Positions 25,169-47,687 of a stretch of 64,000 bases of DNA are shown piece after piece. Source of the DNA: Candidatus Omnitrophota bacterium (GTDB lineage: Bacteria; Omnitrophota; Gorgyraeia; Zapsychrales; Fredricksoniimonadaceae). The DNA lies in assembly GCA_037131245.1 (NCBI GenBank), contig JBAXRK010000001.1, positions 152,385 through 216,384 on the forward strand, written 5' to 3'. A model generated the notes under the pieces. That model did no database searches. It was not told where the DNA came from and was given only the letters and a program-made list of their open reading frames with translations. Position 1 is the stretch's first letter. Every line of letters starts with the position of its first letter. Made by a program: the position numbers and the translations under genes.

Positions 25169-25360
25169 TTATTTGATCCCCAGCTTCTGCAGGATGAGCA
25201 TCATCGGGCACCAGTTGGTGAATGCCGACTGCAGCAAGTTCGCGCCAATAAAGGCCGTGAACCACAGCCACAACGGGCTGACGAAATGAGCCAGCAGCAA
25301 ACTGATGAGTAAAAAAGTACCCGCAATACCCCGTAAGACTCGTTCCATAATATCCCCCAT
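25169..25360 (-). CDS. DUF2892 (YgaP-like) small membrane protein
   Basis: 63 aa, two hydrophobic helices, and ...ANLLQSAFTNWCPMM... typical of that family. Confidence 0.6.
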   Translation of the reverse strand: MGDIMERVLRGIAGTFLLISLLLAHFVSPLWLWFTAFIGANLLQSAFTNWCPMMLILQKLGIK

Positions 25361-28300
25361 TACTTTTGTTTCATCATCATGTAATAAATGACCGGAATGG
25401 CCGTGCGCGACAGAAGCGTGGACGCCACTTCCCCCGCGATCAAAGCCAGCGCGAGCCCCTGAAATATCGGATCGAATAAAATGACCGACGCCCCCACCAC
25501 CACCGCGGCCGCGGTCAGCAGCATCGGGCGGAAACGCTTGGCCCCGGCATCGACCACCGCCTCTTCCAGCGGCATGCCTTCCCGCCGGCGTAACTCGATA
25601 AAGTCCACCAGGATGATCGCGTTACGCACCACGATACCGGCGCCCGCGATCATGCCGATCATGGACGTCGCGGTAAAGAACGTGCCGGTCATCCAATGCG
25701 CCGGCAGAATACCGATCAAAGTGAGCGGAATGGGGAACATGATGACCAGCGGCTTTGAGAACGACTGGAACCAGCCGACCACCAACGCGTAGATCAAAAG
25801 AAGGACGATCCCGAACGCAATGCCTAAGTCACGGAACACTTCAAAGGTCACTTGCCACTCGCCGTCCCATTTTACCGACCATGTGTCACCGCTATCGGGC
25901 ATGGATGTAAAAAGTTGGTCGACTTTTTTATCCGCGACGAAAGGCGCGCCTGACGGCGGCGTTAGCGCGTCGATTTTCGGCTGAAGGCTCATGATCGCGT
26001 ACACCGGACTTTCCAAAGAGCCCTGAACATCGCCGGTCACATAGGTGACCCGCATCAGGTTCTTATGGTAAATGACCGGATCTTTGAACCCCTCTTCGAT
26101 CGTCACCAGATCGCGCAAAGCAATGCGATTGCCATCACGTGACAGGACCGTCAGCTCCAAAACGTTATCCAGCGACCGGCGCTTTTCCTGAGGCAGGCGC
26201 AGCACGATCTCGACCGGCTCATTTTGGCCGTCCAGATGCGCCAGGTCGGCGGCATTACCTTTTAAACTTTCCGTGATCAGGGCCGCCACCTTGCTCGTGG
26301 CGATCCCATTAAGGAAAGCCTTCTGCGTTTCGATCCGCAACCGGTAAAGCTTTTCAGGTTTGGCCACGAATGTGTCAACATCGGTCACATTCTTATCTGT
26401 ATTAAATAAATTTTCGATATCAGCGGCCAATTTGCGGCGGCCTTCCTCATCGGGACCATAGACCTCGGTCACGAGCGTGGCAAGGACCGGCGGGCCCGGC
26501 GGCACTTCGGCCACCTGCACATGCGCTTTATATTTCGCGGCGATCTCATGGATCTTCGGGCGCACCGACACCGCGATCGCGTGGCTCTGGCGCTTGCGTT
26601 CATCCTTTGACGCCAGATTCACCTGCAAGTCGGCCTGCCAGGGACTTGAGCGCAGGAAATAATGCCGCACCAAGCCGTTGAAATTATACGGCGCATTGAT
26701 CCCCGTGTACGCCTCGATATCACGGACTTCCGGGACGGTCGTCAGATAATCGGCCATTTCACCGATGGCCTGCGCCGTCACCTTGACCGGCGTGCCTTCG
26801 GGCATATTTAAAATAACCTGAAATTCATTCTTGTTATCAAAGGGCAGCATCTTGACTTTCACCGCTTTGAGCGGCACCAGCAGGATCGAGAAAAGCAAGA
26901 GAACGCCCATGCCGACCAGAAAGATCAAGCGGACCTTCGGCTTTTCGATCAGCGGCTTCATATAAGAACGATACAAACGGGTCAACCAGTCCTCGCGCTC
27001 GCCTTCCTCGTGAACTTTAAGCAGGCCCTTCTGGTGAGCACCACCCAAGATCTTGCACGCCGCCCAGGGGGTGGCCACGAAAGCCACCATCATTGAAATA
27101 AGCATTGCCATGCTCGAACCGATCGGGATCGGAAGCATATAAGGGCCCATGAGCCCGCCGACGAAGGCCATCGGCAGGATCGCCGCGATAACAGTCAGCG
27201 TCGCCAGGATCAGCGGCCCCTGCACTTCATTGACCGCGTCGATCGCGACCGCCAGAATGTCCCGCCCGCGATTCTTCGCCATCCGTAGGTGCCGGACGAT
27301 ATTCTCCACATCGACGATCGGATCATCGACCAGGATCCCGATGGAAAAGATCAAAGCAAAAAGCGTGATGCGATTAAGCGTAAAACCCAGGAAATAAAAG
27401 CCCGCCAGCGTGAGTGCCAGCGTCATCGGAATAGCGACCGCCACCACGCCCGCTTCGCGCCAGCCAAGCACCACCGCGATCAGGACACTCACGCCCATGA
27501 CCGCCAGCGCCATATGGAACAAAAGCTCGTTCGATTTTTCTTCCGCCGTGCGGCCGTAATCACGGGTGACCGTATAATCCACACCCGCCGGGATCACGCC
27601 GCCCCGTAAACCGTCGACCTTCTTTAATATCTTCTGGCATAACTGCGCCGCATTGGTCCCTTTGCGCTTGGAAACAGAAAGCGTCGCCGCCGCGAAGGGG
27701 CCCTTATCTGTTACGGTCGACTGCGCGCCAAAACGGATGTTCACGTTCTGGTCGTTTTCATCGGGCCCGTCAACCACCGTCGCCACATCTTTTAGCAGAA
27801 CCTCCGCGCCCTGGCTGATACTGACCACCATATTCTCCAGGTCGGCCTTTGAACGGAAGAACGCATCGGCCTCGACAATGATCGCCCCCCCTTCGGCATC
27901 AACGTTGGCTGATCCACTCTTAACATTCGTCTGCTGGATCAAGGCCGCGATCCCGGAAGGATCAAGCAGGCGCTCTTTTAATTTCGCCTCGTCAAACGCG
28001 ACCCGGAACTGCCGCTGACGGCCGCCGGTCACTTGCGTTTGGGAGACATCGGGGATGACCGACACCTCATTCTGAACATCGGTCACGGTATGACGCAGCG
28101 CGACTTCATCGAGTGTTTTTGAATGGAACGTGAGCGTCAGGACCGGCACATCATCGATCGACCGCACTTTAATGAGTGGCTGGGACCCGCCCGGCGCCAG
28201 GGCGTCCAAATTCGCGCTAACCTTGCTATAAAGCTTGATGAGGCTTTTCTCGATATCCTCGCCCACCTTAAAACGCACCGAGATGATCGCGCCACCGGAA

Positions 28301-28578
28301 TGGATCATCGAATAAACGTACTCAACGCCCTTGATCTCCCAGAGCCGGCGTTCGCCGACATTCACGATGCGTTTTTCAACTTCTTCCGTGCTGGCCCCGG
28401 GATAAGAAACAAAGATATCGAACATCGGCACGCTGATCTGCGGTTCTTCCTCGCGCGGCAGATTCACTACCGCCAGCCAGCCGACAAAAACCGAGAACAG
28501 AATGATAAGCGGCGTCACCTTGGAACGGGCAAACATCCCAACAACTTTGGCAATGAAACTTTCCTGGGGGTTATTCAT
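25360..28578 (-). CDS. RND efflux transporter permease (AcrB/AcrD/AcrF family)
   Basis: 1072 aa with the 12-TM / two-large-loop layout. The N-terminal TM followed by LPREEEPQISVP... is typical of the family. Confidence 0.9.
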   Translation of the reverse strand: MNNPQESFIAKVVGMFARSKVTPLIILFSVFVGWLAVVNLPREEEPQISVPMFDIFVSYPGASTEEVEKRIVNVGERRLWEIKGVEYVYSMIHSGGAIISVRFKVGEDIEKSLIKLYSKVSANLDALAPGGSQPLIKVRSIDDVPVLTLTFHSKTLDEVALRHTVTDVQNEVSVIPDVSQTQVTGGRQRQFRVAFDEAKLKERLLDPSGIAALIQQTNVKSGSANVDAEGGAIIVEADAFFRSKADLENMVVSISQGAEVLLKDVATVVDGPDENDQNVNIRFGAQSTVTDKGPFAAATLSVSKRKGTNAAQLCQKILKKVDGLRGGVIPAGVDYTVTRDYGRTAEEKSNELLFHMALAVMGVSVLIAVVLGWREAGVVAVAIPMTLALTLAGFYFLGFTLNRITLFALIFSIGILVDDPIVDVENIVRHLRMAKNRGRDILAVAIDAVNEVQGPLILATLTVIAAILPMAFVGGLMGPYMLPIPIGSSMAMLISMMVAFVATPWAACKILGGAHQKGLLKVHEEGEREDWLTRLYRSYMKPLIEKPKVRLIFLVGMGVLLLFSILLVPLKAVKVKMLPFDNKNEFQVILNMPEGTPVKVTAQAIGEMADYLTTVPEVRDIEAYTGINAPYNFNGLVRHYFLRSSPWQADLQVNLASKDERKRQSHAIAVSVRPKIHEIAAKYKAHVQVAEVPPGPPVLATLVTEVYGPDEEGRRKLAADIENLFNTDKNVTDVDTFVAKPEKLYRLRIETQKAFLNGIATSKVAALITESLKGNAADLAHLDGQNEPVEIVLRLPQEKRRSLDNVLELTVLSRDGNRIALRDLVTIEEGFKDPVIYHKNLMRVTYVTGDVQGSLESPVYAIMSLQPKIDALTPPSGAPFVADKKVDQLFTSMPDSGDTWSVKWDGEWQVTFEVFRDLGIAFGIVLLLIYALVVGWFQSFSKPLVIMFPIPLTLIGILPAHWMTGTFFTATSMIGMIAGAGIVVRNAIILVDFIELRRREGMPLEEAVVDAGAKRFRPMLLTAAAVVVGASVILFDPIFQGLALALIAGEVASTLLSRTAIPVIYYMMMKQK

Positions 28579-29947
28579 GAGCCGCTCCCGTTAATCTGGC
28601 CGTTAAGGCCTTCATGCCCGCTTCATCCATTTTACCACCCAGGAAATACAAGCGGGCTTCGCAGGCATATAGCGCGGCCTTCAGTTCCTCAACAGCATTC
28701 AGCGTGTTAAAACGGGCCTCACGCGCGTCTTCCAGGTCCATGACCGATCGACGGCCTTCATTATAAAGAGGCAGCAAGAGTTCAACGGCTTTAGCGGCAT
28801 CCTCAGCCATTGCCCGGACGACGGGATAATTCGCCCGCAAAGCGTCGAACCGGGCGCTTTCCCGGCTGATATCAACCGCTGTCGCATCCTTGAGCGCGGC
28901 GGCCTCGTTTTGGGCGCGGCTTAAAAGAGCAACGGCTTCTTTCTGCCGGCCGGCGCGCGTCCGGTCAAAGAGCGGCAGTTCCGCGACGATCCCACCCGAC
29001 GCATTATTGCCCCCGTGGCCAAAAAGATCGTGACGGTTATTCGTGCCATCCGCGGTCAGGGTAATGGTGGGCAAAGCGCTGTCTTTCGCGCGCTTAACCT
29101 CTTCCTGGCCGGCATTGATCCGGGCACCGGCCGCCACAAAGTCAGGGCGCGACGCCACGGCTTTTTCCAACAAAGCAACAGCGTCAGTATCTGCGAAATC
29201 CGCGTCCGGCAGCGCCGCGGGAAGCGCGATCTCATTCTTGATCGGCTCACCCATCATGATATTAAGCAGCATCCGCATCGCTTTCACCTGTCGGAGCATA
29301 TCATTCTTTGCCTGACTGAAACGTCCGTACCGCACACGGGCGGCATAATAATCCGCTCCGAGCACAAGGCCCTTATCTTTTAGCGTCTCAGCTTTCTTAA
29401 GATCAGCCTGCGCGGCTTTTTCGGCTTCTTCGGCGGCCACAAGCAGGCGGTCCATCGCCAGCGCGCTGGTAAAAGCATCGTGCGCCATCAGGAACGTTTC
29501 CATCTTCACAAAAGCTTCATCGGCCTGCGCGGCCTTGACCTGTTCGCGGGCAACGCGAGCGCGGCGGACGGTCTGCATCGCGTCGAACAATGGCCAACGC
29601 AAATGAACACCGCCCTGAAGGTCGCGCTGATGCCGCGGCGTATTCAAGCGGTTAAGATCAAAGTCAGCGGATGTAAATCGTTCCTGGCGCAGCAGCATGC
29701 CGAACACATTGACCGGGTCATCGCTTTCGGTATAACCGGCCGATATCGACACGCCCGGCCAGAAACCGGCGGAGGCCTGCATTTCGCGGGCCCAGCTTAA
29801 CTCCACATCAGCTCCAGCGGACTTTAATTTAGGATAATGATCGAGAACCTTGACGTAAAATTGATCAAAGGAAAGTGGCGCGGCAAGAGCAGGTAAAGAC
29901 AGCGCCGCGCAAAAAATGAACGTTATAACGATCGCGCTCCATCTCAT
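28571..29947 (-). CDS. TolC-like outer membrane efflux factor
   Basis: I place the start at the internal ATG 29947..29945 (MRWSAIVITFIFCAALSLPALAAP signal peptide). That ATG overlaps the upstream TGA (ATGA). Two-fold repeated helical/beta layout. 8-nt overlap with the RND gene. Confidence 0.8.
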   Translation of the reverse strand: MRWSAIVITFIFCAALSLPALAAPLSFDQFYVKVLDHYPKLKSAGADVELSWAREMQASAGFWPGVSISAGYTESDDPVNVFGMLLRQERFTSADFDLNRLNTPRHQRDLQGGVHLRWPLFDAMQTVRRARVAREQVKAAQADEAFVKMETFLMAHDAFTSALAMDRLLVAAEEAEKAAQADLKKAETLKDKGLVLGADYYAARVRYGRFSQAKNDMLRQVKAMRMLLNIMMGEPIKNEIALPAALPDADFADTDAVALLEKAVASRPDFVAAGARINAGQEEVKRAKDSALPTITLTADGTNNRHDLFGHGGNNASGGIVAELPLFDRTRAGRQKEAVALLSRAQNEAAALKDATAVDISRESARFDALRANYPVVRAMAEDAAKAVELLLPLYNEGRRSVMDLEDAREARFNTLNAVEELKAALYACEARLYFLGGKMDEAGMKALTARLTGAAHE

Positions 29948-30300
29948 TGTTCGAGCCCCTTCTCCACAGCTATTGCGACCGTTTCCACGCAACCCACGCA
30001 TGACAATTTCTTGGCGGCGCGGATCTCTTTGCATTTGGTCGACCCGGCAACAGACAGCAGCGAATTCTCACATGCCCGCACCTGCTCGGGATGATCTTTT
30101 TCAAGAAGGACCCTGGCGGCGTACAAAGCGCCGCACTCTCCATCGGGAGCCCGCCCTCCGCCACAAGTCGCGCACTTTTCGACCACGTCCTGCGAGAGGG
30201 CGAACTGGTCCTCAAACGCGCGAACAACCGCCTGGGCACAGTTCAGCTTTTGATACCCCGGCTTACCGATGTAATGCGCTTTGGCTTTCTCGACAGACAT
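29944..30300 (-). CDS. C_GCAxxG_C_C family putative redox protein
   Basis: 118 aa. LNCAQAV..., CATCGGG...ECGALYAA..., KCKEI..., SCVGCVE cysteine pattern of that family. Confidence 0.65.
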   Translation of the reverse strand: MSVEKAKAHYIGKPGYQKLNCAQAVVRAFEDQFALSQDVVEKCATCGGGRAPDGECGALYAARVLLEKDHPEQVRACENSLLSVAGSTKCKEIRAAKKLSCVGCVETVAIAVEKGLEQ

Positions 30301-31404: not shown

Positions 31405-31878
31405 ATGAAAAACCATCCCAGCGAACTTCAGAGCAAGATCAACAGCCAGGGGTACCGGATCACCAAACCCCGCCAAAAGATCATTGACGCTTTAAGCCAT
31501 TCCAAGAACTGCCTGAGCGTTGATGATATTTACATGGCCATACGGGCCAAAGGAGATAGTGTCGGGGTCACCACGATCTACCGGGCGGTCGATAGCCTGG
31601 CCAAGGCCGGTATTATCAGAAAATTATCACTTATCAGTGGAAAAACCTCTTACGAGCTCATTGACCCTGAGCTTAAGCACCACCATCACCTGATCTGCCG
31701 CAGCTGCCAGCGGGTCATCGATTACTCTGACTTTATTAATGAAGAGGTACTGCTCATCAAGAAACTGGAAAAGATCGTTTCACAGACCCATCATTTTGAT
31801 ATTGAAGACCATATGCTGTCGTTTACCGGGCTTTGTCAGCTATGTCAAAAACCAGGATCAATGAATAAAGTGAGGTGA
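31405..31878 (+). CDS. fur: Fur-family metalloregulator
   Basis: wHTH (RITKPRQKIIDAL...VTTIYRAVDSL), HHHHLIC regulatory site, CRSC and CQLC structural Zn pairs. AAGGAA RBS. Confidence 0.85.
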   Translation: MKNHPSELQSKINSQGYRITKPRQKIIDALSHSKNCLSVDDIYMAIRAKGDSVGVTTIYRAVDSLAKAGIIRKLSLISGKTSYELIDPELKHHHHLICRSCQRVIDYSDFINEEVLLIKKLEKIVSQTHHFDIEDHMLSFTGLCQLCQKPGSMNKVR

Positions 31879-32098: not shown

Positions 32099-32929
32099 AT
32101 GAATAACGAGATAACCATCTTCGAAGATTACAAGATCCGCCGTATTTATGATGAGCCGACGGAAACATGGCACTTCTCCGTTGTGGACGTCATTCAAGCC
32201 TTAATTCAACAGCCTGACTACCAGACAGCCAGAAAATACTGGAATAAACTTAAAGAGCGCCTTCGTCAGGAAGGAAGTCAGTCGGTGACAAAATGTCACC
32301 AACAGAAATTGCTTGCGGCCGATGGTAAAAAGTATCTAACCGATGTCGCGACAGCGGAAATCCTTCTGCGCCTGGTTCAGTCCATCCCCAGCCCTAAAGC
32401 TGAACCGATCAAACTCTGGCTCGCCAAAGTCGGCTATGAACGCATGCAAGAAATAGCCGACCCCGCCCTTTCGCTTAACCGTGCCAGGGAAACCTGGAAA
32501 AAACACGGCCGCAGCTCTCAATGGATCCAGCAACGGATGCTGGGCCAGGAGACTCGCAACAAATTAACGGATTACTGGAAAGAGAATGATATTAACAAGC
32601 CTGACGAATTTGCCATTCTGACAAACATCATTCATCAGGAATGGGCCGAAGTCACTGTCAAAGAACACAAGGCCCTGAAGGGACTAAAAACACAGAACTT
32701 GCGCGATCATATGAACGAGGCGGAACTTATCTTTACCGCCCTTGCCGAAATGTCCAGCCGTAAGATCGCTGAAAGCGTGGAAGCCAAAGGCATGCCGGAA
32801 AATGCGCGGGCCGGCAAGAAGGGAGGCGGCATCGCCCGTAAAGCCAGGATCGAGTTAGAAACCGCCACCGGCAAGAAAGTCATTTCGGCCGGCAATTATT
32901 TGACGACGAAAGAGTTACCACGGCCGTAA
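32099..32929 (+). CDS. Bro-N domain protein (antirepressor-like)
   Basis: ITIFEDYKIRRIYDEPTETWHFSVVDVIQAL... and IQSIPSPKAEPIKLWLAKVGYERMQEI resemble the widespread Bro-N family. Visibly AT-richer than surrounding genes. The 3' end overlaps the convergent CDF-NifX gene by 15 nt. Confidence 0.7.
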   Translation: MNNEITIFEDYKIRRIYDEPTETWHFSVVDVIQALIQQPDYQTARKYWNKLKERLRQEGSQSVTKCHQQKLLAADGKKYLTDVATAEILLRLVQSIPSPKAEPIKLWLAKVGYERMQEIADPALSLNRARETWKKHGRSSQWIQQRMLGQETRNKLTDYWKENDINKPDEFAILTNIIHQEWAEVTVKEHKALKGLKTQNLRDHMNEAELIFTALAEMSSRKIAESVEAKGMPENARAGKKGGGIARKARIELETATGKKVISAGNYLTTKELPRP

Positions 32930-34009
32930 CCACTGGATACGGCTGCGGCCGAAACCGGTGGCCGCATTGGCTGAAGAAGCCATTTTCAAGCGACCGGCTT
33001 GATAATCCGCGAAGGTTGAGCCCACCGTCTGCAGCGTATCAAAATAATAGATCCTGACCCCCTGCCCTCTTAATTCCGAGAACATATGCGGTCCCACCTT
33101 CCCCGCCAGCACCACGCCGATCCGGCTCTCACGGACGATCGACCCGAGAATAATACTTTCTTCCACGTTATACATCCGGCTATTGTTAGCTCGGATCGAG
33201 GTGGTTTTTTTCTTAAGGTCGAGCAGGCAGAAATACGGCGCCCGCCCCAGCAACGTTGAGACCGGACCGTCCCACATGCCGGTTTCAGCCGGAATAAGGA
33301 TCATGTTGCGCCGCGCCAGTGTGTCCTCCACGCCGCGCGTAAAAACGAACATGATCGCAACCGCCAACGCCGCCAGCGAAAATGCCACGCGTTGTTTTGT
33401 TTCCAGAGAGACCTTGGCGCGCTCCTTTTCAAAATACTCTTTGAAGATCTGCATCGCGCCCTGGATCTGAAAGCCCCCGATCACGATCGCCCCGATCGGG
33501 TCACAGTAAACCAATCCCATGACCGCGAGAAATATCCCCAGGAACCCGAAACAAGCCGCGAAAAGATTCGTCTTGTTCTGGATCATGAACATAAATAAAT
33601 TGCTGTTCTTCGGATCGCGCTCCAGCGCTTTCGATGAGATGTAATACAAGTAGCCATTAGCCAGGATCGAAATTTTTGCGACCAACAAGGCAAAGAGTCC
33701 CGGGCGGGCCGGAATACGCGACACAATGATCGCGATATTATCCGCGCAGATCCACACTCCCGACAGGAACATGATCGCCCCGATCAGAATGCTCTGCGTC
33801 GCAAGAGAGAGCCTTTTGTCCCTGGCCCCGTGATAATTGATCCCGAACGCGAAACAATCCGAGAACGAATGCACCGCCTCAGCCACCAGCACTTTACTGC
33901 CGGTCACCAATCCCACCACCGCCTTGATCAGCGTCATACTGATGTGATAGATCAGGGACCAGGAAACAACCTTTTCCTGCTCAGCGGCATCGGCTTTTTT
34001 ACGGTTCAT
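32915..34009 (-). CDS. CDF-like membrane domain fused to a C-terminal NifX/NafY-like (FeMo-cofactor-carrier fold) domain
   Basis: Start moved to ATG 34009..34007, which overlaps the upstream TGA (ATGA). TM2-type AEAVHSFSD. No CDF cytoplasmic domain; instead an extra TM and LGRAPYFCLLD...GVVLAGKVGPHMFSELRGQGVRIYY. Confidence 0.7.
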   Translation of the reverse strand: MNRKKADAAEQEKVVSWSLIYHISMTLIKAVVGLVTGSKVLVAEAVHSFSDCFAFGINYHGARDKRLSLATQSILIGAIMFLSGVWICADNIAIIVSRIPARPGLFALLVAKISILANGYLYYISSKALERDPKNSNLFMFMIQNKTNLFAACFGFLGIFLAVMGLVYCDPIGAIVIGGFQIQGAMQIFKEYFEKERAKVSLETKQRVAFSLAALAVAIMFVFTRGVEDTLARRNMILIPAETGMWDGPVSTLLGRAPYFCLLDLKKKTTSIRANNSRMYNVEESIILGSIVRESRIGVVLAGKVGPHMFSELRGQGVRIYYFDTLQTVGSTFADYQAGRLKMASSANAATGFGRSRIQWLRPW

Positions 34010-34914
34010 TTCAATTTCCCCCGAATATGAACAAGGCACTTGCGGCATTTATCTCTTTTATCGCGCGCCGCCCCCTGCATCTGGCCGTCGCACCAGGTAT
34101 GGTCGATCTCCCAGCAATGCTTCCCATGATTGGGGAAAGACGGGCACTGCACCTGCCGCTCAGCGGGGCAATTTAAGATCTCCCAGCAATTCGACTTCAT
34201 CGTGGTCGAGCAATAAACCTTAAGGTCGCCGGTGCGCTTTTTCATCTCCAGGATCAATTTATCCCGCCCGTCCTTGCTATCAAGGTCCTTCCGGCCGATA
34301 TCCTCCAGGAACCCCTCCATGTTCTTGCAATAATCCCTGACCGCGTTAAGCAAATGCTTGGTGCGCGCGTTCACTTCCTCATCAGGCATCGCGTCGCGCC
34401 AGACCTCGAAACCGCCAAGCACGCGCCCTTTCTTATCGATCAGCGGGCCGGCGGAAACCACTATCGAATGCTCCCTGTTAATACGGTCGATCACCTTGAC
34501 CCTTTTGCCGATCACGGACTTGCGCGTTTTCATCGCCTGCTTGATCGCACAATGATTAGTGCACAGGTCGCTCTTGAAAATATCCGCGCAAACCACCTTT
34601 CCGATCGCGTCATTCAGGTTCAAGCCCGTAAAATCAAGACAGGCCGGATTCATGAACTGGATCTTCATATCCTTGTCGACCACGAAGAACGGATAGGTGG
34701 ACGCGCGTAAAATACTCACCGCGAAGGTCGCCATGTCTTCAAAATCACCGAAAGCCTTGGTCTTGGACGAAAGGAAGTCCAGGAAATCATCCTGCGCCCC
34801 ATCCTCACCCGAACCAGCCTTCTTTTTTGAACCGCGATGCTCTTCGGTGGTTTTAAGCGGCGCCTTTACCGCCCTGAGTTCACTGAGGATCTTGGCCATC
34901 CGGTCGAAGTTCAT
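34006..34914 (-). CDS. Stand-alone PAS sensor with C-terminal double CWE cysteine-rich (two-CW-like) domain
   Basis: PAS core FFVVDKDMKIQFMNPACLDFTG... with CADIFKSDLCTNHC. C-terminus NCWEILNCPAERQVQCPSFPNHGKHCWEIDHTWCDG...CRKC. Confidence 0.65.
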   Translation of the reverse strand: MNFDRMAKILSELRAVKAPLKTTEEHRGSKKKAGSGEDGAQDDFLDFLSSKTKAFGDFEDMATFAVSILRASTYPFFVVDKDMKIQFMNPACLDFTGLNLNDAIGKVVCADIFKSDLCTNHCAIKQAMKTRKSVIGKRVKVIDRINREHSIVVSAGPLIDKKGRVLGGFEVWRDAMPDEEVNARTKHLLNAVRDYCKNMEGFLEDIGRKDLDSKDGRDKLILEMKKRTGDLKVYCSTTMKSNCWEILNCPAERQVQCPSFPNHGKHCWEIDHTWCDGQMQGAARDKRDKCRKCLVHIRGKLK

Positions 34915-35820
34915 TTATTTTCCCCCAAATTCAATATAAAAATCAACACTCCCCACTTCGGCAAAAGCGCCAGTCAAAGCCATGCGCAATCGCCCCAACT
35001 CCTGCCTGCACTCGTCCACCGTCACAGGCGGACAATGCAGCGTTATCCCCAGCCAGAACTTTTTCCCCACACGCTTGAATTTCAGCGCGCTCATTCGATA
35101 TGGCGCGAAATCCCGGTGGATCAACTGTGTGACCCCATGGCGGAACACCGGGTCGGGTGAGCGGTCAAGCACCACCCTCAAATTGCTTTGCCAGTGCCCC
35201 AGCGCATCTTTAATGATGATGACGCCCACGATCAGCGCCGCGACCTTATCAACAAAAGCGAAAGCCGGCCCGAACTGCGCGACAATGATCGCCACAATGA
35301 CCGCGCCCGATGAAAAAAGGTCAGCCCCCGCGTGGCAGGCATTCGCCACCATCCCCGGGCTTTCGAGCTTTGTTCCGGCGCAAAAGTTATACCGGTACAT
35401 CATGTATGTCAGAAAGGTCGACACCAGCACGATCGGCAGAGCCATGATGTCCGGTGTTACAAAATCACGCCGCATGATCGCCAGCACATTCGAGAGCACG
35501 ATGAACAGCCCCAGTCCGATCAGGACGCTAAAAGCCGAAAGAGCCGCGATGAACTCGATCCGGGCATAGCCGTAAGGAAATTTCTCGTCCGACTTGCGCT
35601 CGACAAAAACCAGACTGACCATGATCAGAATGCTGGTCGCGACACAGGATAATGACTGCAACCCGTCCGCGACCAGGCCCGAGCTATTCGTGAACGCGCC
35701 ACCCGCCAGCTTAAGGCCCGACATGAGGACATTACCCGCCACCGTAAGCCCCAACACCCGCTGCGAACAGATCCGGCAGGCTTTAAGATTGGTTGACGCG
35801 CACATCGGCTTCTCGGTCAC
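34915..35820 (-). CDS. Cation diffusion facilitator, MamB-like paralog
   Basis: N-terminal CRIC, TM2 ADGLQSLSC, FPYGYARIEF, TM5 HAGAD, C-terminal CDF domain. 301 aa. Confidence 0.75.
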   Translation of the reverse strand: MTEKPMCASTNLKACRICSQRVLGLTVAGNVLMSGLKLAGGAFTNSSGLVADGLQSLSCVATSILIMVSLVFVERKSDEKFPYGYARIEFIAALSAFSVLIGLGLFIVLSNVLAIMRRDFVTPDIMALPIVLVSTFLTYMMYRYNFCAGTKLESPGMVANACHAGADLFSSGAVIVAIIVAQFGPAFAFVDKVAALIVGVIIIKDALGHWQSNLRVVLDRSPDPVFRHGVTQLIHRDFAPYRMSALKFKRVGKKFWLGITLHCPPVTVDECRQELGRLRMALTGAFAEVGSVDFYIEFGGK

Positions 35821-36701
35821 GCGCCCTCCTTTAATGACATCCCCAGGAACAACTCATGCGGCCTGTCGAGCTTCCTGCGCAGCGCATCTTTCACTCTTTT
35901 TCCGGTGGCTGTCACCTCATTCATGGAAGCCCCGGCGCCCACACCCAGCGTCAGCATGATCTCCAGCACATGGCCCGACCGCGACACCCGAAGAGCCTCA
36001 ACAGCCACCGACGGCTTTACCTTCATGACCAGCTTTCTGATCTCACCGGTCAGCTCTTCATCACCAGCAGCATCCATCAAACCCTTGAAAGCGGACTTCA
36101 AATAAACAATGCCATAGATGATCATGAAGAACGCGGTCAGGATCGCGCAGGCATAATCAGGCAAGGTCGCCCCGTGACGGGCGATGACCACGGTAAAAAC
36201 CGTCAGGATCGATAGCAGGAAATCCGTGCTGAGGGCCAGCGCCATATCGCGGTTATCCACCTCGGGAATATCCCATATCTTGTTCCCGCTCCAGAAGATC
36301 ATGATCAAACCACCCAGCGCTACCACCAACGAAACCCAGGCCGCCAGCATCTGCGGCGGATAAAGCGTATGAAAGAACACCATATGCCCGGTGGAATACA
36401 GCAGCATCCCTGTGCTCAACGTGATCAACAGAGAAGCCCCCAGGACAATGATAAATTCCAACTTGTCTGCATTAAAGTTAACGCGGGCGCCTCGAGCGGG
36501 ATGCATACGACCGATGCGGATCAAACTCACCACCGCGAGAAAAACCCCGAACAAAGAAAACAGCCCGGAGACCAGCAGGGTTTTTGACCCGGCCAGACCC
36601 CCAAAAACCACTTTCACTAAAAATGATGCCAGAAAAAAGTAGAACAGCCCGTAAACCGTGAACTCTTTCTTTTCTTTGGCAACATCGACCATCTTCTTCA
36701 T
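35817..36701 (-). CDS. Cation diffusion facilitator-like protein with degenerate transport-site residues
   Basis: Start moved to ATG 36701 (MKKMVDV..., AAGGGA RBS) to remove the 130-nt overlap with the upstream gene. Six TM plus a CDF C-terminal fold (LMDAAGDE...VEALRVSRSGHVLEIMLTL). TM2 has no His/Asp (VSGLFSLFG). Confidence 0.65.
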   Translation of the reverse strand: MKKMVDVAKEKKEFTVYGLFYFFLASFLVKVVFGGLAGSKTLLVSGLFSLFGVFLAVVSLIRIGRMHPARGARVNFNADKLEFIIVLGASLLITLSTGMLLYSTGHMVFFHTLYPPQMLAAWVSLVVALGGLIMIFWSGNKIWDIPEVDNRDMALALSTDFLLSILTVFTVVIARHGATLPDYACAILTAFFMIIYGIVYLKSAFKGLMDAAGDEELTGEIRKLVMKVKPSVAVEALRVSRSGHVLEIMLTLGVGAGASMNEVTATGKRVKDALRRKLDRPHELFLGMSLKEGA

Positions 36702-36712
36702 ATCATTTCCCT

Positions 36713-37426
36713 TTATATCGCCGCCGGCTTCAAGCCATTGATCTGATGGCAATTCGAACATACCCCGCGATACACATGCGGCATCTGGGTCGTATTGGCC
36801 GGGATCGTGATATCCGGCCTGACGACATGGCAGTTCTCGCACACACCGCGAAACTCATGAAGCATATTCGCGTCGCGGAAGATCGGCGGAGGCGTCACAC
36901 CCTGATTGAGCGCGATCTGTTGAAACCCGTTATTAGCCTTTGGCGCTACCGGGATCATCTGGCCGCAACGCGGGCAGCGCGTATAACCGCGGTTCCAGCA
37001 ATTGACATCATTGAATGTGAACTTGCACTGCGGACAAGTGAAGGTCCCCATCTGACGGCCCTGGCCGAAAGCCACTGGCTGCGCGGGGGGCGTCGCGTTT
37101 GGAAAACAATTCGTCACCGTTGGACAGGTCGCGCAACCCGGTGGAATAAAAGCGGCCGGCTGAGCCGGATTGGTGGTGGCGTTAGGAAAACATTGCGTCA
37201 CGGTCGGACATGTCGCGCAAGCCGGAGGAATAAAGGCCGCTTGCTGTGCCCCGTTCCCGCGCCCGACTGACTGGCCCGGCAATGGCACATTGCCACCCTT
37301 AAATAGGGCCGTGCAAAATAGCACGAATAATACCGTCACCGCGGCACCCGCCAGCCAGACATTCCTGGTGCCGGAACCGGTGCATTTCTCCCACGCTTTC
37401 TCGATCCCATCCTCATGATGCTTCAT
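36713..37426 (-). CDS. Double-magnetochrome protein with Cys-rich tandem repeat and zinc ribbon (MamT/MamP-like class)
   Basis: TM. Two copies of AAFIPP(A/G)CATCPTVT(Q/N)CFPNAT. CPQC...CPRC. HEFRGVCENCH and HVYRGVCSNCH. Confidence 0.8.
   Translation of the reverse strand: MKHHEDGIEKAWEKCTGSGTRNVWLAGAAVTVLFVLFCTALFKGGNVPLPGQSVGRGNGAQQAAFIPPACATCPTVTQCFPNATTNPAQPAAFIPPGCATCPTVTNCFPNATPPAQPVAFGQGRQMGTFTCPQCKFTFNDVNCWNRGYTRCPRCGQMIPVAPKANNGFQQIALNQGVTPPPIFRDANMLHEFRGVCENCHVVRPDITIPANTTQMPHVYRGVCSNCHQINGLKPAAI
37076..37240 (-). repeat. In-frame tandem duplication (~81 nt x2) encoding a CxxCx6C module
   Basis: aa 63-90 and 91-117 of the 237-aa protein are near-identical. Confidence 0.8.
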
Positions 37427-38851: not shown

Positions 38852-39201
38852 TGGGCCTCGATCCAGGTCATGTTCTCTTTGCAGCGCGGGCATACCGGAA
38901 ATCCGGTCTTGCCGCAGGCCGGACACACAAAATTCCCGATGAACCCATTCCAGAACATCGCCACTTTACAGGTCGGGCAAAGAGGGACGCCTTTTTCCCC
39001 GCACCTCGGGCAAACCGCGCTCACATTGTGCTGGATGACTTTCATCACCACATTGCTTTTCACCAGCCCCCGCGCCGATAATGACTTGAACTTCCCTACT
39101 GAATAAGCGATGAACACAAAAACAAAAATAGCGAACAGCGCCCCCACGATCATCAGGCGGCTGCGGTCCTCATCGGCAATCTCGCGCATTTGGCCGGCCA
39201 T
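38848..39201 (-). CDS. Membrane-anchored double zinc-ribbon protein
   Basis: Start moved to ATG 39201 (TGATG overlap with the upstream stop). TM MIVGALFAIFVFVFIAY. CPRC-x7-CPTC and CPAC-x7-CPRC. Confidence 0.65.
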   Translation of the reverse strand: MAGQMREIADEDRSRLMIVGALFAIFVFVFIAYSVGKFKSLSARGLVKSNVVMKVIQHNVSAVCPRCGEKGVPLCPTCKVAMFWNGFIGNFVCPACGKTGFPVCPRCKENMTWIEAQ

Positions 39202-39908
39202 CAAAACACTCTCACTTTCGGCTTCACGCCACCGGCCGCGACCATCGGCGCGGCCACTGCCACCACTTCGTGCATCGCGCCGCCGCATTTCGGGCATTGC
39301 GCCGGCATGATCCCGTCAGCCGCTGTTTCAGAAATACGATAATCACAATCAAAGCAGATATAGAACTTGCCCTGAACGATACGGCCCAAATTCGCCTGCG
39401 TGTCAAAAGTCGCGCAAGCCACCGGCTTTTTACTCCCGGTGATCCCGAAATGCGCCGGAACATTCTCGGCGGTTAATTTCGTCAGTCCATCCGGAAAATC
39501 ATTGAGCGCCTGCCAGGCTGAGCCATGAACACCGGTATAAACCTCGATACGCGCCTGGTCAAAAACCCGGAATGGCTCAAACCCGACATTATTCCCCAGG
39601 ACCGCGTCGACCTTCATTCCGGCTATCATCTGGGCGCTGCGTAACCCGGCGGCATGCTGAGCATCCAAATATTTATTCGGTACCGCTTTATATGTTTTCT
39701 TGGCACGGTCGCAAATGATGTAGTAGGGCGCCCGGCCGAACAGATACGACACGGGACTATTGATGTCCGGTCCCGTTGCCGCGATGGCCACGATCACCGC
39801 TTTGCGTCTGCTTAAGATCACCGGATTGTCGTTCTCATAGAACGCCTGCCCGACCACCAGCGTGACGGCCGCAAAAAAAATCATTAAGAAGATCATTTCC
39901 CGGCGCAT
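39201..39908 (-). CDS. NifX/NafY-like (FeMo-cofactor-carrier fold) domain protein with C-terminal zinc ribbon
   Basis: Signal/TM. IVAIAATGPDINSPVSYLFGRAPYYIICD...VDAVLGNNVGFEPFRVFDQARIEVY. CFDC...CPKC. Confidence 0.75.
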   Translation of the reverse strand: MRREMIFLMIFFAAVTLVVGQAFYENDNPVILSRRKAVIVAIAATGPDINSPVSYLFGRAPYYIICDRAKKTYKAVPNKYLDAQHAAGLRSAQMIAGMKVDAVLGNNVGFEPFRVFDQARIEVYTGVHGSAWQALNDFPDGLTKLTAENVPAHFGITGSKKPVACATFDTQANLGRIVQGKFYICFDCDYRISETAADGIMPAQCPKCGGAMHEVVAVAAPMVAAGGVKPKVRVF

Positions 39909-42377: not shown

Positions 42378-44180
42378 TTAAGGTAATAAGCTTAAAAAAA
42401 TAATATAGAACGTCGAAAGCACAAGAAAAATGATAGCGACCGGGATCCCCCGCCGGCCGTAGCTGGCAAAGGTAAGCCCTTCCTTATTCTTGAGGTCTTT
42501 CCCCATTTCTTCAACCAGCGTCTGCGAAACGATCCCCGCGCTCGCGCCTGAAATACACGCGCACGCACCGGCAATAGAGCCCAGGTTCAGCGCCCACCAC
42601 ACGACATCGGTAAAATCCGCGAACCCCGAATGCAGGACGATCGGCACCAGGAAAGCCGTGGCCGGACCAGCGTTCATGAGCGCGGTAAAGATCGCCATGG
42701 TGAACATCAGCAGGATCGGATAAAGGATCTTGTTGCCCATCGACATCGTCACCAGCGCATCAGAAACCACTTTAAGCATCCCGGAATACAGCGCGCCGCC
42801 GACGATCAAAAAGAGCGCGATAAAGAACAGCATGTCAGTGAGGCTGATCCGCTTGATCACATCCTTGGCCTTATGGTTCTCGATGGCCAGAAGCAGGAAG
42901 CCGCCGCCCAGCGCGATCGGCGCCAGATGGACCTTGAAGAACGGCAGGACCAGGAACGCCACCAGAACCGCGCCCAGAATAATAAGCACCCGCTTGATCC
43001 GGGGCCAATCCATGTGCATCTCTTCAAGCTCGCCCTCAACCTTGGCCAGGAATTCTTTTTCCAGCTTGGCGGAATGATGCTTCTGATTATGACGGAACTC
43101 GGTATACCACATATACCAGAGAAAGACGCCCAGGAAGATCGCGCACATCGGGCCCATCACGATCAAGAAATCAATAAAGGTCAGGCCCGCGGCGGACGCC
43201 ATGAGCATATTGGAGAAGTCCCCGACCGGCGTCATATTCCCGCCGATGACGGACGAAATAAGCTCGGCCACGATCACAGGGATAGGGTCGAAATTGAGCC
43301 CGCGCGCGATATAGATCGTGATCGGGATAACAACCAGAATGATCGAAATGTTGTTCACAAAAGATGACGACAAGGCGGTCACCACGCACAGCGCAAAGAC
43401 CACTTCGATCGTTTTGGCCCGGAACATCACCACGATCTTTTTCGCGCTGTATTCAAAGACGCGCAGGTCATCAAGGAATATCGCAAAGATGCTCATGCCC
43501 ATAAAGATGAAGATGGGGCTCATGTGGATGGCATCGAACGCTTCGGTTTGATTGTAAAAACCGAATGCCGTGCCGGCCAGCAGCATTAATACCGCGCCCA
43601 GCACCACACAGACCGTGCGATTGAAGAGATTAAGGAAAAGCATACCGAAGGTGATCGCCACAATGACCAGCACGACCAGGATATTTCGTCCGCTGGTGCC
43701 AAACAGGTCGACCCCGGCATTAAGCGGCAATTTCTCGCTCATCGTGAGCTTCATGCCGTTACGGGAGATCACGAACGACACCTTATCCCCCGGCTTGTTC
43801 TGCGACATCAGGAAAGATAAATGCGACGCCGACTGGATATCGATATTGTTATACTTGAGGATCACGTCCCCGCGGCGGATATCAATAAGGCGCCGGGCAT
43901 TACCTTTAGGAACATTATTGACCAGCACGCCCGCCACGATCGGCAAATTGAACTCTTTGGCGATAACCGGATTGACCGTCACGCCGTCAAACTCGATGGC
44001 ATTCGACCCGCCCGCCTGCGCCAGACGCGGCTGGCCGTGCGTGGGCATGGTGCGGCTGTCCATGAACAACGCTGTCAGCACAATGACCACAATGATAGCG
44101 ATCGCCGCTTCCATAAAAGGGAAGCTTTTAACGTGCTTGAGGTTGTCTTCCTGAATGGTCCTTCTGATATTTAACGCCAT
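42378..44180 (-). CDS. N-terminal TM + PDZ fused to an ArsB/NhaD-superfamily permease (MamN-like)
   Basis: PDZ FDGVTVNPVIAKEFNLPIVAGVLVNNVPKG...GDVILKYNN, then ~10-12 TM helices with a central soluble loop. 600 aa. Confidence 0.75.
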   Translation of the reverse strand: MALNIRRTIQEDNLKHVKSFPFMEAAIAIIVVIVLTALFMDSRTMPTHGQPRLAQAGGSNAIEFDGVTVNPVIAKEFNLPIVAGVLVNNVPKGNARRLIDIRRGDVILKYNNIDIQSASHLSFLMSQNKPGDKVSFVISRNGMKLTMSEKLPLNAGVDLFGTSGRNILVVLVIVAITFGMLFLNLFNRTVCVVLGAVLMLLAGTAFGFYNQTEAFDAIHMSPIFIFMGMSIFAIFLDDLRVFEYSAKKIVVMFRAKTIEVVFALCVVTALSSSFVNNISIILVVIPITIYIARGLNFDPIPVIVAELISSVIGGNMTPVGDFSNMLMASAAGLTFIDFLIVMGPMCAIFLGVFLWYMWYTEFRHNQKHHSAKLEKEFLAKVEGELEEMHMDWPRIKRVLIILGAVLVAFLVLPFFKVHLAPIALGGGFLLLAIENHKAKDVIKRISLTDMLFFIALFLIVGGALYSGMLKVVSDALVTMSMGNKILYPILLMFTMAIFTALMNAGPATAFLVPIVLHSGFADFTDVVWWALNLGSIAGACACISGASAGIVSQTLVEEMGKDLKNKEGLTFASYGRRGIPVAIIFLVLSTFYIIFLSLLP

Positions 44181-45872: not shown

Positions 45873-46784
45873 TTATTTCCTTGCCGCAGCCAGCGCAAGG
45901 GCCTTAGGAGTTAAATTTTCCTTACACGTGAACGCGACCGTCACTTCCTTGATCTGCGCGTATTTACGCATCAGGGCCTGACGGACTTCACGGGCGATCG
46001 CATGGCCTTCCTTGACCGTCCGTTTCGGGTCAATAATGATCTCAAGGTCGACCCAGGCATGCTGCCCCACGCGACGGGCATGGACATAATTAACGCCCAT
46101 CACCTGGCGGTACTTCATGACTTCCGCCTCGATGACCTTTTCCTTATCGCCGGGCAGGGCTTCATCGATGAGGTTCTTGAACGACTGCAACCCCAGCGTG
46201 ACCGCCGACTTGCCGATCATCAGGCCAACGAAGATCGCCGCCAGCGCGTCTATAATAGGAAAACCGATATTGGCCGCGAAAACGCCGAACAACACCGCGA
46301 TACTTGAAAGCATGTCGGAGCGGTTCTCCTGGGCATTCGCGATCATCGCCGGTGAATTCAGTTTTCTGCCCACGCAAAAGCCGTAAGACGACAAAATGAA
46401 GTTCGCCAGGATCGCGACCAAAGCCGCGAAGAACGCCGCCATGTGGGGCGCCTTGATCTCGCCGCTCACAATGACCGCGATGGCGTCGATCAGGATCATG
46501 CATGAAATACCAAAGAGCAGAATATACGCGAAAACCGCGCCGATGAATTCCGATTTGCCCAGGCCCCAGGGATATTTCTTATCATCCCGGTGGCTGGAGA
46601 GCTTGACCGTGATGATGACCATGAGCGTCGTCGCCACGTCGGTACCGCTGTGAAACCCGTCAGCCACCAGACCCTTCGACTTGGCGGCATAACCGATATA
46701 GATCTGAAAGATCGCAAGCGTCAAATTCCCAAGGAGGACGATCCAGGGAACGATCTTGCCGCATTTAACGCAACGTTCTTGCAT
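45873..46784 (-). CDS. mamB: Cation diffusion facilitator, MamB-like
   Basis: N-terminal CVKC, TM2 ADGFHSGTD, YPWGLGKSEF, TM5 NAQENRSD (compare the MamB NAWDNRSD as I recall it), CDF C-terminal fold. Confidence 0.8.
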   Translation of the reverse strand: MQERCVKCGKIVPWIVLLGNLTLAIFQIYIGYAAKSKGLVADGFHSGTDVATTLMVIITVKLSSHRDDKKYPWGLGKSEFIGAVFAYILLFGISCMILIDAIAVIVSGEIKAPHMAAFFAALVAILANFILSSYGFCVGRKLNSPAMIANAQENRSDMLSSIAVLFGVFAANIGFPIIDALAAIFVGLMIGKSAVTLGLQSFKNLIDEALPGDKEKVIEAEVMKYRQVMGVNYVHARRVGQHAWVDLEIIIDPKRTVKEGHAIAREVRQALMRKYAQIKEVTVAFTCKENLTPKALALAAARK

Positions 46785-46787
46785 AAA

Positions 46788-47687
46788 TTATTCCGCCGGA
46801 AAATCCTGAATAAAGATATTACCGATGTACTTATCTTCGCTTCTAAGCAAAGCCCGGACCGACTGATTGATGTGCTTGGCCTCAACAACACTGAGCTCGG
46901 GGCTAAGCTGCAACCCGATATCGAGTACGATCTGCCGCCCTGTCTGGCGCGCCCGAACGTGTTTGATCTTGGCGATCCCCTTTACCGTCTCGACCGTGCG
47001 GTGGATCTTCTCCAGGTACTCCTCGGGCAGGTTCGTATCAACGATGCCTTTAAGCCCGCTTTTGAGGATCTCAAAACTGGCATGCAAAACGTGTGCGCAC
47101 TCGAAGATCGCGATGACCGGGTCCACCCAGTGCAACCCCATGCGGGTCACGACCACGCCGATCGCGACCAGGAGCGATGAAATAACGTCGATCTTGTTAT
47201 GTTCCGCGTGCGCTTTTAAGGAAGGGCTGTTAAGCTCCTGCCCGCTGCAATGCGAAAATTTATAAATGAACGCGCTGATGGTGGCCGACAGGATCGCCAC
47301 GAAAAACACCACCGAGTGCTGGACCACAAAGGTGCGCTTGGCCAGAACAATGAAAGAGCTCAAGATCAGCGCCAGCGTACCCAGGATCATGATGACGCTC
47401 ATCACGACTTGCGCGATGAACTCGATCTTGCCGTAGCCGTAAGGGTAGCGGTGATCGGCCGGCTTCTTGGAATACTTGACGCCGATAATGACTACGATCG
47501 AAGAAAGAACGTCACTCAAATTACAAAGCCCGCTGCCGATGAGCGCGCGGCTGCGGCCCATGAACCCCACGAACAACTTGAACGCCGCCAGGAACAGATT
47601 CGCGATAATGCCCGCGAAGATCGTCTTGCGCGCGCAAGCCTCGCATTTCTGTGAATTCTTTTTCTTTGGCTCGTTATTTGACGACAT
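46788..47687 (-). CDS. mamM: Cation diffusion facilitator, MamM-like
   Basis: N-terminal CEAC, TM2 GSGLCNLSD, YPYGYGKIEF, TM5 HAEHNKID, CDF C-terminal fold. Immediately upstream of the MamB-like gene. Confidence 0.75.
   Translation of the reverse strand: MSSNNEPKKKNSQKCEACARKTIFAGIIANLFLAAFKLFVGFMGRSRALIGSGLCNLSDVLSSIVVIIGVKYSKKPADHRYPYGYGKIEFIAQVVMSVIMILGTLALILSSFIVLAKRTFVVQHSVVFFVAILSATISAFIYKFSHCSGQELNSPSLKAHAEHNKIDVISSLLVAIGVVVTRMGLHWVDPVIAIFECAHVLHASFEILKSGLKGIVDTNLPEEYLEKIHRTVETVKGIAKIKHVRARQTGRQIVLDIGLQLSPELSVVEAKHINQSVRALLRSEDKYIGNIFIQDFPAE

Follow-up and report, generated by a model that had tools for sequence, protein, structure and literature searches.

Which role could be played by a second pair of cation diffusion facilitator (CDF) proteins in a magnetosome gene cluster, when one of them lacks a metal transport site and the other carries a cysteine at one of its most conserved positions? 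The question is raised by a stretch of 64,000 nucleotides from the uncultured, magnetotactic Candidatus Omnitrophota bacterium (GenBank assembly GCA_037131245.1, contig JBAXRK010000001.1, positions 152,385 to 216,384), hereafter the window, in which two adjacent genes on the minus strand encode CDF proteins. Gene A (34915..35820) encodes a MamB-like CDF of 301 amino acids, and gene B (35817..36701, with an open reading frame (ORF) also read to 36842) a CDF-fold protein of 294 amino acids without a transport site. On balance, their sequences lead us to favour a reading in which B and A would associate as unequal subunits of one heterodimeric CDF transporter, located in the magnetosome membrane, A being the candidate transporting protomer and B the candidate auxiliary one.

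Transport sites and folds of A and B

The Pfam profile PF01545 matched exactly five ORFs in the window: A (E-value 4e-35), B (5e-9), a MamB-like CDF (9e-40), a MamM-like CDF (2e-39) and a fifth gene, C (3e-16), while screening every window ORF of 80 amino acids or more with hidden Markov model profiles gave no sixth CDF. The original prediction of a second adjacent CDF pair and of five paralogues in all was thus borne out. Transport-site residues were mapped in a MAFFT L-INS-i alignment of around 145 sequences, with FieF of E. coli K-12 (D45/D49/H153/D157) as reference. The tetrahedral site A of CDFs, on whose composition metal selectivity is known to depend, is expected to consist of [H/D/N]xxxD on transmembrane helix (TM) 2 and [H/D]xxxD on TM5. 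The alignment placed Q55 and C59 (TM2) and H163 and D167 (TM5) at this site in A, and F48, G52 (TM2), A156 and D160 (TM5) in B, so that A departs from the expected pattern with four polar residues in which the TM2 Asp has become Cys, and B with a single remaining ligand. The residues are H45, D49/E153, D157 in the MamB-like protein, C55, D59/H163, D167 in the MamM-like one and H60, D64/Q157, N161 in C. Site codons of the CDF genes were also read directly in the DNA, in agreement with the mapping; those of A run on the minus strand from Q55 (35656-35658) to C59 (35644-35646) in TM2 (35644..35658) and from H163 (35332-35334) to D167 (35320-35322) in TM5 (35320..35334), and those of B from F48 (36558-36560) to G52 (36546-36548) in TM2 (36546..36560) and from A156 (36234-36236) to D160 (36222-36224) in TM5 (36222..36236). 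All five ligand sets first read by eye were reproduced in this way. Separate HMMER alignments to Shewanella YiiP (D47/D51/H155/D159) placed A and the B-family profile in this register too.

The A protein passes the cut-offs of PF01545 (121.9 bits, cut-off 26.6) and TIGR01297 (145.4 bits, cut-off 82.35). Its scores with the NCBIfam equivalogs MamB (NF033616, 139.3 bits) and MamM (NF033615, 130.1 bits) fail their cut-offs of 350, as does that with MamV (NF040994, 77.5 bits, cut-off 500), and the FieF model gives 69 bits. An N-terminal CxxC (C15, C18), of a kind conserved in magnetosome MamB as C6/C9 (PMC4287615), is present, with both cysteines at least 90% conserved in the family. This family comprises 32 homologues at 40-77% identity, the next-best matches being ordinary CDFs at 27%, and its site is QC-HD in 25 members and QC-QD in the other seven, with Q55, C59 and D167 invariant. 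When the A profile was run exhaustively with HMMER against 1.84 billion representatives, some ten A-type clusters came out on top (230-388 bits), below which the scores graded into MamB/MamM-like CDFs without a break; the distant A representatives mostly have EC-QD, EC-ND or EC-SD, and Q/E, C and D are fixed in all of them but two (QN-ND and LS-QD). The A-type pattern can therefore be written as [Q/E]xxxC plus [H/Q/N/S]xxxD. Cys at the second TM2 position occurred in none of around 95 non-A CDFs of the comparison set. The initial reading had Cys replacing His or Tyr at two sites, which applies to the MamM-like protein only, where Cys holds a position taken by Tyr, His or Asp in other CDFs; in A, as aligned, C59 replaces the near-universal second TM2 ligand (Asp, D49 in FieF), with Gln at the first position, a more radical change than had been proposed.

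B is more divergent in its profile scores: PF01545 is passed (36.5 bits, cut-off 26.6) and ZT_dimer gives 21 bits (E 3e-4), TIGR01297 is failed (50.5 bits, cut-off 82.35), and among NCBIfam models the best is MamM (84.2 bits), followed by MamB (49.2 bits; cut-offs 350 for both) and MamV (37.7 bits, cut-off 500), all failed. There is no CxxC in this protein, which is 100% identical to a protein of an Omnitrophota metagenome-assembled genome (MAG; P0036 in our set). Its family includes 24 homologues at 35-61% identity, whose alignment has 13 invariant and about 40 near-invariant positions. In all 24 members, the TM2 core (residues 42-61) was devoid of D, E, H, N, Q and C, so that the lack of a TM2 ligand in B does not depend on the alignment register; canonical ligands concealed by a misalignment, which would have refuted the initial reading, were thus not found. 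TM2 carries F-G at the site-equivalent positions in nearly all members, and the TM5 Asp is kept in 20 of the 24. B is thus unable to form a tetrahedral site A, in support of the original prediction, and may be the transport-dead subunit proposed there.

AlphaFold2 models indicate that A and B are both full CDF folds. Built with the family alignments as input, they have predicted local distance difference test (pLDDT) values of 83.0 for A and 81.7 for B, and each shows six long TM helices followed by an alpha-beta-beta-alpha-beta C-terminal domain (CTD). In Foldseek searches of the PDB, the top match was YiiP for both (5vrf, E 1.6e-12 for A; E 1.5e-11 for B); matches to YiiP, ZnT7, ZnT3, ZnT1, ZnT8 and SLC30A10 had E-values down to 1e-12 and TM-scores of 0.6-0.7, the first five being the leading ones, with a probability of 1.00. 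The two CTDs also matched the crystal structures of the MamM and MamB CTDs, and that of A, although undetected by Pfam, is present in a divergent form according to AlphaFold2 and Foldseek.

The distribution of conservation differs between the two families. In A the most conserved helices are TM2, TM4 and TM5 (entropy 0.93-0.96). In B, with an overall entropy of 1.54, the conserved end comprises the TM3-TM4 loop (0.59), TM2 (1.10), TM6 (1.15) and TM3 (1.17), and the relaxed end TM4 (1.95) and TM5 (1.55). In YiiP the dimer interface is made of TM3 and TM6. The helices conserved in A are those that build the YiiP transport bundle, and B instead keeps TM3 and TM6, so that the two patterns are complementary. 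Both proteins retain the positions of the FieF K77/D207 charge interlock, as K80/D210 in B and, in A, as K/R87 and D219. No segment of B is better conserved in the family alignment than a lumenal motif, G105-HMVFFHTLYP-P116 (36354..36389, minus strand), which covers the end of TM3 and the TM3-TM4 loop and in which H106, H111 and P115 are invariant. The lumenal GHMVFFHTLYPP loop is conserved in the B family, lies at the non-cytoplasmic end of TM3 according to the AlphaFold2 secondary structure, and was not found in the other four window paralogues nor in FieF.

Linkage, distribution and origin of the pair

B and A are encoded inside a magnetosome gene cluster that, according to Pfam and NCBIfam, spans from around 53.3 kb down to 32.9 kb of the window in genes of the minus strand, from MamE to gene C, and they lie near magnetochrome, Mad2-like and Mad6-like genes. 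The two genes share a GTGA overlap (35817..35820) in which the GTG start of A (35820-35818) meets the TGA stop of B (35819-35817), and B contains, near its 3' end, a Shine-Dalgarno-like AAGGAGG (35825..35831, minus strand) that precedes this GTG by 4 nt. We compared this arrangement with that of three loci obtained through A homologues, nine GTDB species representatives obtained through B (two of them overlapping the first three) and one A-type representative. B was directly upstream of A in 12 out of 12 independent loci, the window included; a 4-nt ATGA or GTGA overlap joined the B stop and the A start in eight of them (ATGA in 7 of the 11 besides the window), and all junctions were within 8 nt. 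These overlaps and close junctions fit translational coupling. The conserved synteny and the many homologues also mark A and B as genuine genes rather than ORFs that arose by chance.

The neighbours of the pair are also shared. A magnetochrome (MCR) gene (36713..37426, minus strand; Pfam MCR E 3.7e-10), the stop of which is 12 nt before the B start, precedes B immediately here and in four other loci (L002, L003, L004, L015), and a gene for a Cys-rich protein with a PAS domain (Pfam E 4e-11) and a two_CW_domain (NCBIfam) (34006..34914, minus strand), whose ATG comes directly after the TAA stop of A, has a counterpart following A in the first three of these. The MCR-B-A-PAS module was present in at least nine species-level MAGs, of Omnitrophota and others, and the block NifX - small protein - Fer4_5 - PDZ - MCR - B - A (- PAS) is shared by Omnitrophota MAGs and one MAG labelled Fibrobacteria. 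The B-A pair was also found in one MAG labelled Planctomycetales; with few exceptions, homologues of A, B and the MamM-like protein are labelled Omnitrophica/Omnitrophota. The PAS/two-CW protein could be a redox or metal sensor of the module. In two other Omnitrophota clusters, L016 (CP070807.1, 1.82 Mb) and L017 (JADFXX010000001.1), there was no A or B within 10 kb of the MamM (CDHD)-MamB (HDED) pair, nor was the Mad2-Mad6-PDZ-MCR-B-A-PAS module present within that distance, L017 having FeoB and FecR genes instead. The B-A module is thus accessory and variable among close relatives.

A natural B-A fusion, P0180, was identified as an uninterrupted ORF of 601 amino acids (L014, 3110-4915, on a Logan contig of SRR16235686). 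The B profile recognises its residues 2-290 with 291 bits, and the profile of A gives 342 bits with residues 310-597; the A half keeps the CxxC and an EC-ND site, and the B half has F-G/L-D. The topology is compatible with such a fusion, since the chain passes from the CTD of B to the A N-terminus on the cytoplasmic side of the membrane. A fusion of this kind is classic Rosetta-stone support for a physical A-B complex, provided here by the sequence of a single case. The genes around it encode an acetyltransferase, a methyltransferase, a PMT_2 protein and a radical-SAM protein, and this context indicates that the B-A pair may exist outside magnetosome clusters too. The original prediction had proposed two heterodimer-like pairs in the window. 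For B and A the B-then-A order, the overlap, the fusion and the complementary conservation make this plausible, and a physical dimer may be supposed.

With respect to origin, A resembles MamB most. In blastp it gave 124 bits with the window MamB-like protein, 110 with the MamM-like one and 52 with FieF, and B gave 53 bits with the MamM-like protein and 50 with the MamB-like one; A against B gave 22 bits. NCBIfam ranks MamB over MamM for A and MamM over MamB for B, all far under the cut-offs, and the canonical MamB-like protein of the window itself reaches only 237.6 bits on NF033616, below its cut-off of 350, which points to a model tuned to Proteobacteria. On deep-branching representatives the MamB and MamM scores were a few bits apart, with none at the cut-off, and the clades were left unlabelled. 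In profile-profile comparisons A scored 505 with the CxxC/HD-ED MamB-like set, 410 with generic CDFs and 321 with Omnitrophota MamM, and B was not discriminated; the sets compared were drawn from A-profile hits and carry some ascertainment bias. In a neighbour-joining tree of 115 CDFs (100 bootstraps), A (99%), B (100%), C (100%) and Omnitrophota MamM (98-100%) were each supported, the deep nodes had 0-48% support, and the grouping of B with C (48%) is probably due to long-branch attraction. The phylogeny that had been suggested as a means to date the duplication thus separates the families as monophyletic groups and, with deep nodes at 0-48%, leaves the duplication undated. From the tree and their presence under several phylum-level labels, A and B appear to be old, separately monophyletic families, and the duplication neither recent nor specific to this genome. 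Gene order is the same in both pairs, the MamM-like member preceding the MamB-like one. This shared order would be expected if a MamM-like/MamB-like pair had been duplicated in tandem long ago, a fit that falls short of a demonstration. Identity to the window proteins in the MAG nHGR_bin18 is 91% for MamM, 91% for MamB, 72% for A and 60% for B, and in nDJH6_bin5 76%, 78%, 58% and 52%, respectively; these values suggest that the second pair is under weaker yet clear constraint.

Proposed function and its alternatives

In the heterodimer that we favour, A would be the working protomer, descended from the MamB-like clade, and would move Fe2+, a borderline-soft ion and the most plausible substrate, from the cytoplasm to the lumen in exchange for protons, through its polar four-residue site. 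B would be a scaffold or regulatory partner that has kept the CDF fold, TM3 and TM6, the Lys/Asp charge interlock and the CTD and has lost the transport site, and its lumen-facing His-x4-His loop may receive or present metal, possibly to the co-encoded magnetochrome protein. The pair would then belong to an accessory MCR-B-A-PAS module of some deep-branching magnetotactic bacteria. We infer heterodimerisation, the substrate, the location in the magnetosome and the role of the His loop from these comparisons. A bolder version, in which MCR-B-A-PAS would be a self-contained unit for iron import and oxidation, with A carrying Fe2+ through its thiolate-containing site and the invariant His-x4-His loop of B capturing it in the lumen and handing it on to the magnetochrome protein for controlled oxidation, seems to us decidedly doubtful; if true, it would make A-B the first CDF heterodimer of bacteria to include a catalytically dead subunit specialised for the lumen and to couple transport to a redox hand-off.

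Several observations speak against the heterodimer or its assignment to iron and magnetosomes. Adjacency in an operon fits sequential or independent functions equally well, and MamB has a role in vesicle formation that is independent of transport, so B could act alone. A Cys ligand in A would be as fitting for Zn, Cd, Co or Cu(I). The evolution of A and B has been faster than that of MamM and MamB (72 and 60% identity in the closest genome, against 91% for each of the latter), and with two Omnitrophota clusters devoid of the pair it is therefore dispensable for magnetosome formation as such. Furthermore, the fusion was found only once, and no recognisable magnetosome genes were present on its 11-kb contig. 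Some of these points lead to other explanations. A and B might be co-transcribed and form separate homodimers, A being a metal transporter of altered selectivity and B a CDF-fold protein that does not transport but serves in structure, sorting or metal binding in the lumen, much as MamB acts in membrane biogenesis independently of transport. The CTD and charge-interlock residues present in both would support homodimers equally, B has a strongly conserved lumenal motif of its own, and the similarity between A and B is very low (22 bits in blastp); however, the strict B-then-A junction in every locus and the fusion exceed what co-regulation would need, and the relaxation of TM4 and TM5 of B beside conserved TM3 and TM6 fits the role of a partner, which leads us to consider this arrangement rather unlikely. 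It seems unlikelier again that A, with or without B, does not import iron for the mineral and instead handles a different soft metal (Zn, Cd, Co, Cu), or is a redox-gated valve acting through C59, with contaminant exclusion or detoxification as its function. An invariant thiolate in place of a conserved Asp, seen in 0 of around 95 non-A sequences, would suit such a function, given that CDF selectivity is set by site composition, and so would a fusion gene outside any visible magnetosome context, but in all the other loci A and B have magnetochrome, Mad2-like and Mad6-like genes around them, the nearest relatives of A are MamB-like, and the Cys of the Omnitrophota MamM-like protein suggests that thiolate ligation of iron is typical of the lineage.

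The pair could also be a redundant or decaying mamM/mamB duplicate, or a greigite-type set, B being in the course of degenerating into a pseudogene. The gene order, which is that of the mamM-like/mamB-like pair, the faster evolution and the lost ligands of B would be expected in that case. Yet the ORF of B has stayed intact in over 24 lineages, at identities as low as 35%, and its fold is predicted with confidence, and A and B are each monophyletic with 99-100% bootstrap support in the neighbour-joining tree. As for greigite, Lin et al. (2020) reported greigite-type clusters in only two Omnitrophota MAGs (PMC7602337), against the many Omnitrophota MAGs with the B-A pair, and the window holds a single set of the other mam genes. 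We regard this explanation as highly improbable as a whole; B as a pseudogene was rejected on account of family-wide conservation, and a greigite-type mamM/mamB pair on account of the distribution and the single set of other mam genes.

The magnetosome cluster and the meaning of the pair

The cluster begins with a MamE-like trypsin/PDZ gene, a PDZ gene, a NifX+magnetochrome gene and a MamP-like PDZ+magnetochrome gene, followed by the MamM-like and MamB-like CDF genes; genes for a TPR protein (MamA), a LemA protein (MamQ), a PDZ-CitMHS protein, TauE, PLDc_N, PDZ and HTH_17 come next, then NifX (Mad2-like), a zinc ribbon, Fer4_5 (Mad6-like), PDZ and the magnetochrome protein, and finally B, A, the PAS/two-CW protein and the CDF-NifX fusion C. 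The PDZ-CitMHS gene (42378-44180, minus strand) encodes a 600-amino-acid protein in which an N-terminal PDZ domain is fused to a CitMHS/ArsB-type permease, the family of MamN, and this fusion is kept in all related clusters seen (L002, L004, L016, L017). An FmpB-like protein of 537 amino acids (49687-51300, minus strand) combines a NifX-like domain and two magnetochrome motifs with zinc-ribbon-like CxxC pairs and long stretches of low complexity rich in Gln/Met; NifX-like domains occur three times in the cluster, in this protein, at 39201-39908 and in gene C. At the downstream edge, on the opposite strand, lie genes for a Fur-family regulator (31405-31878) and a Bro-N domain protein (32099-32929), the latter sharing 15 nt with the 3' end of gene C. 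Just outside the cluster are a FeoB gene, coding for a Mad17-like ferrous iron transporter (20582-22585, minus strand), and a resistance-nodulation-division (RND) efflux pair of an AcrB-family protein and an outer-membrane factor (25360-30034, minus strand), which are separated from it by C_GCAxxG_C_C, methyltransferase and DUF134 genes.

The other CDFs of the cluster place the sites of A and B in context. The site of the MamM-like protein (46788..47687, minus strand; C55 codon at 47523-47525) is C-D-H-D in 59 of 62 Omnitrophota orthologues. The other MamM-like representatives recovered have Tyr at the first TM2 position, as does MamM of Magnetospirillum, and thiolate ligands in magnetosome CDFs look, from these alignments, typical of this lineage. 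The MamB-like protein (45873..46784, minus strand) has an N-terminal CxxC, and its HxxxD/ExxxD site, which had been counted among the non-canonical ones, turned out to be the commonest signature among CxxC-bearing MamB-like CDFs in the exhaustive search. Gene C (32915..34048, minus strand) encodes a CDF membrane domain with a NifX-like Nitro_FeMo-Co domain (Pfam, E 1e-7) in place of the usual CTD. It has orthologues in two other Omnitrophota MAGs (L006, 5140-6297; L009, 1465-2619), with HD-QN or ND-QN sites; C is not beside B-A in most loci, and the three C sequences are monophyletic and nearest to the MamB-like set by profile comparison. Degenerate sites (H-N-A/S/G-D, E-N-A-D, H-N-A-E) were also seen in metagenomic CxxC-bearing MamB/MamM-like CDFs (P0216, P0246, P0260, P0210, P0137), and partial loss of site A may be recurrent in this clade, as judged from such sequences. 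Clostridia CDFs automatically named MamM or MamB carry the CxxC/HD-DD signature, which is not exclusive to magnetotactic bacteria.

Among known systems, MamM and MamB of Magnetospirillum gryphiswaldense are the closest in organisation: they too are adjacent CDF paralogues in a magnetosome cluster with the MamM-like gene first, and A has the MamB/MamM-type CxxC and scores best on MamB/MamM, and B on MamM. In contrast, their sites are functional, Y/C-D-H-D and H-D-D/E-D, as reportedly found in strain MSR-1 and as read here in the window orthologues, while B has none and A has Gln and Cys in TM2, and A and B form separate monophyletic, faster-evolving, accessory families with scores far below the cut-offs of 350. 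MamM and MamB act as a heterodimer in which MamM stabilises MamB, as stated in a passage of PMC10470508 that cites Uebe (2011). In another pair, ZnT5-ZnT6, hydrophobic residues have taken the place of two site ligands in ZnT6, which is considered the auxiliary subunit (PMC7949119). There, as in yeast Msc2-Zrg17, one protomer has a working site and the other is auxiliary, and B has F, G and A at three of the four positions. By analogy, two hallmarks of this type, a pair of different, presumably co-expressed CDF protomers and hydrophobic site substitutions in one member, are recognisable in A and B. The differences are that ZnT5-ZnT6 is eukaryotic, belongs to the early secretory pathway and handles zinc, while A-B is bacterial, operon-encoded with overlapping genes, probably concerned with iron, and a putative heterodimer; the likeness is one of analogy, with no specific homology beyond the CDF superfamily. 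YiiP/FieF, a homodimeric Zn/Fe/Cd exporter and the best structural match of both proteins, shares with them the six TM helices, the CTD and the Lys/Asp interlock. It differs in site A, D-D-H-D against Q-C-H-D in A and F-G-A-D in B, and in the site B His of intracellular loop 1, replaced by FPYGY in A and by a non-conserved loop in B.

Extra magnetosome-cluster CDFs outside MamB/MamM have been described before, in the form of MamV of Magnetospirillum and mae6 of Elusimicrobiota, neither of them as a coupled pair with a ligand-less member. The latter is an unnamed CDF of Elusimicrobiota clusters that groups with neither MamB nor MamM (bioRxiv 10.1101/2022.07.08.499144), and it is set apart from A and B by its description only. 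We found no description of the B-A pair in the literature searched, in which mae6 was the nearest mention, and public records label the A and B proteins 'cation transporter' or 'hypothetical protein'. Among bacteria, a CDF pair in which one partner lacks the ligands has, to our knowledge, not been reported.

A represents a natural, conserved exception to the textbook four-residue selectivity of CDFs, in which the 'invariant' TM2 Asp is Cys, and B a natural, conserved CDF with no site, the two together being a putative bacterial, operon-encoded counterpart of ZnT5-ZnT6. For deep-branching magnetotactic bacteria that produce bullet-shaped magnetite, the pair would point to an optional second transport module beside the MamM/MamB core, linked to magnetochrome and to a PAS/Cys-rich candidate sensor.

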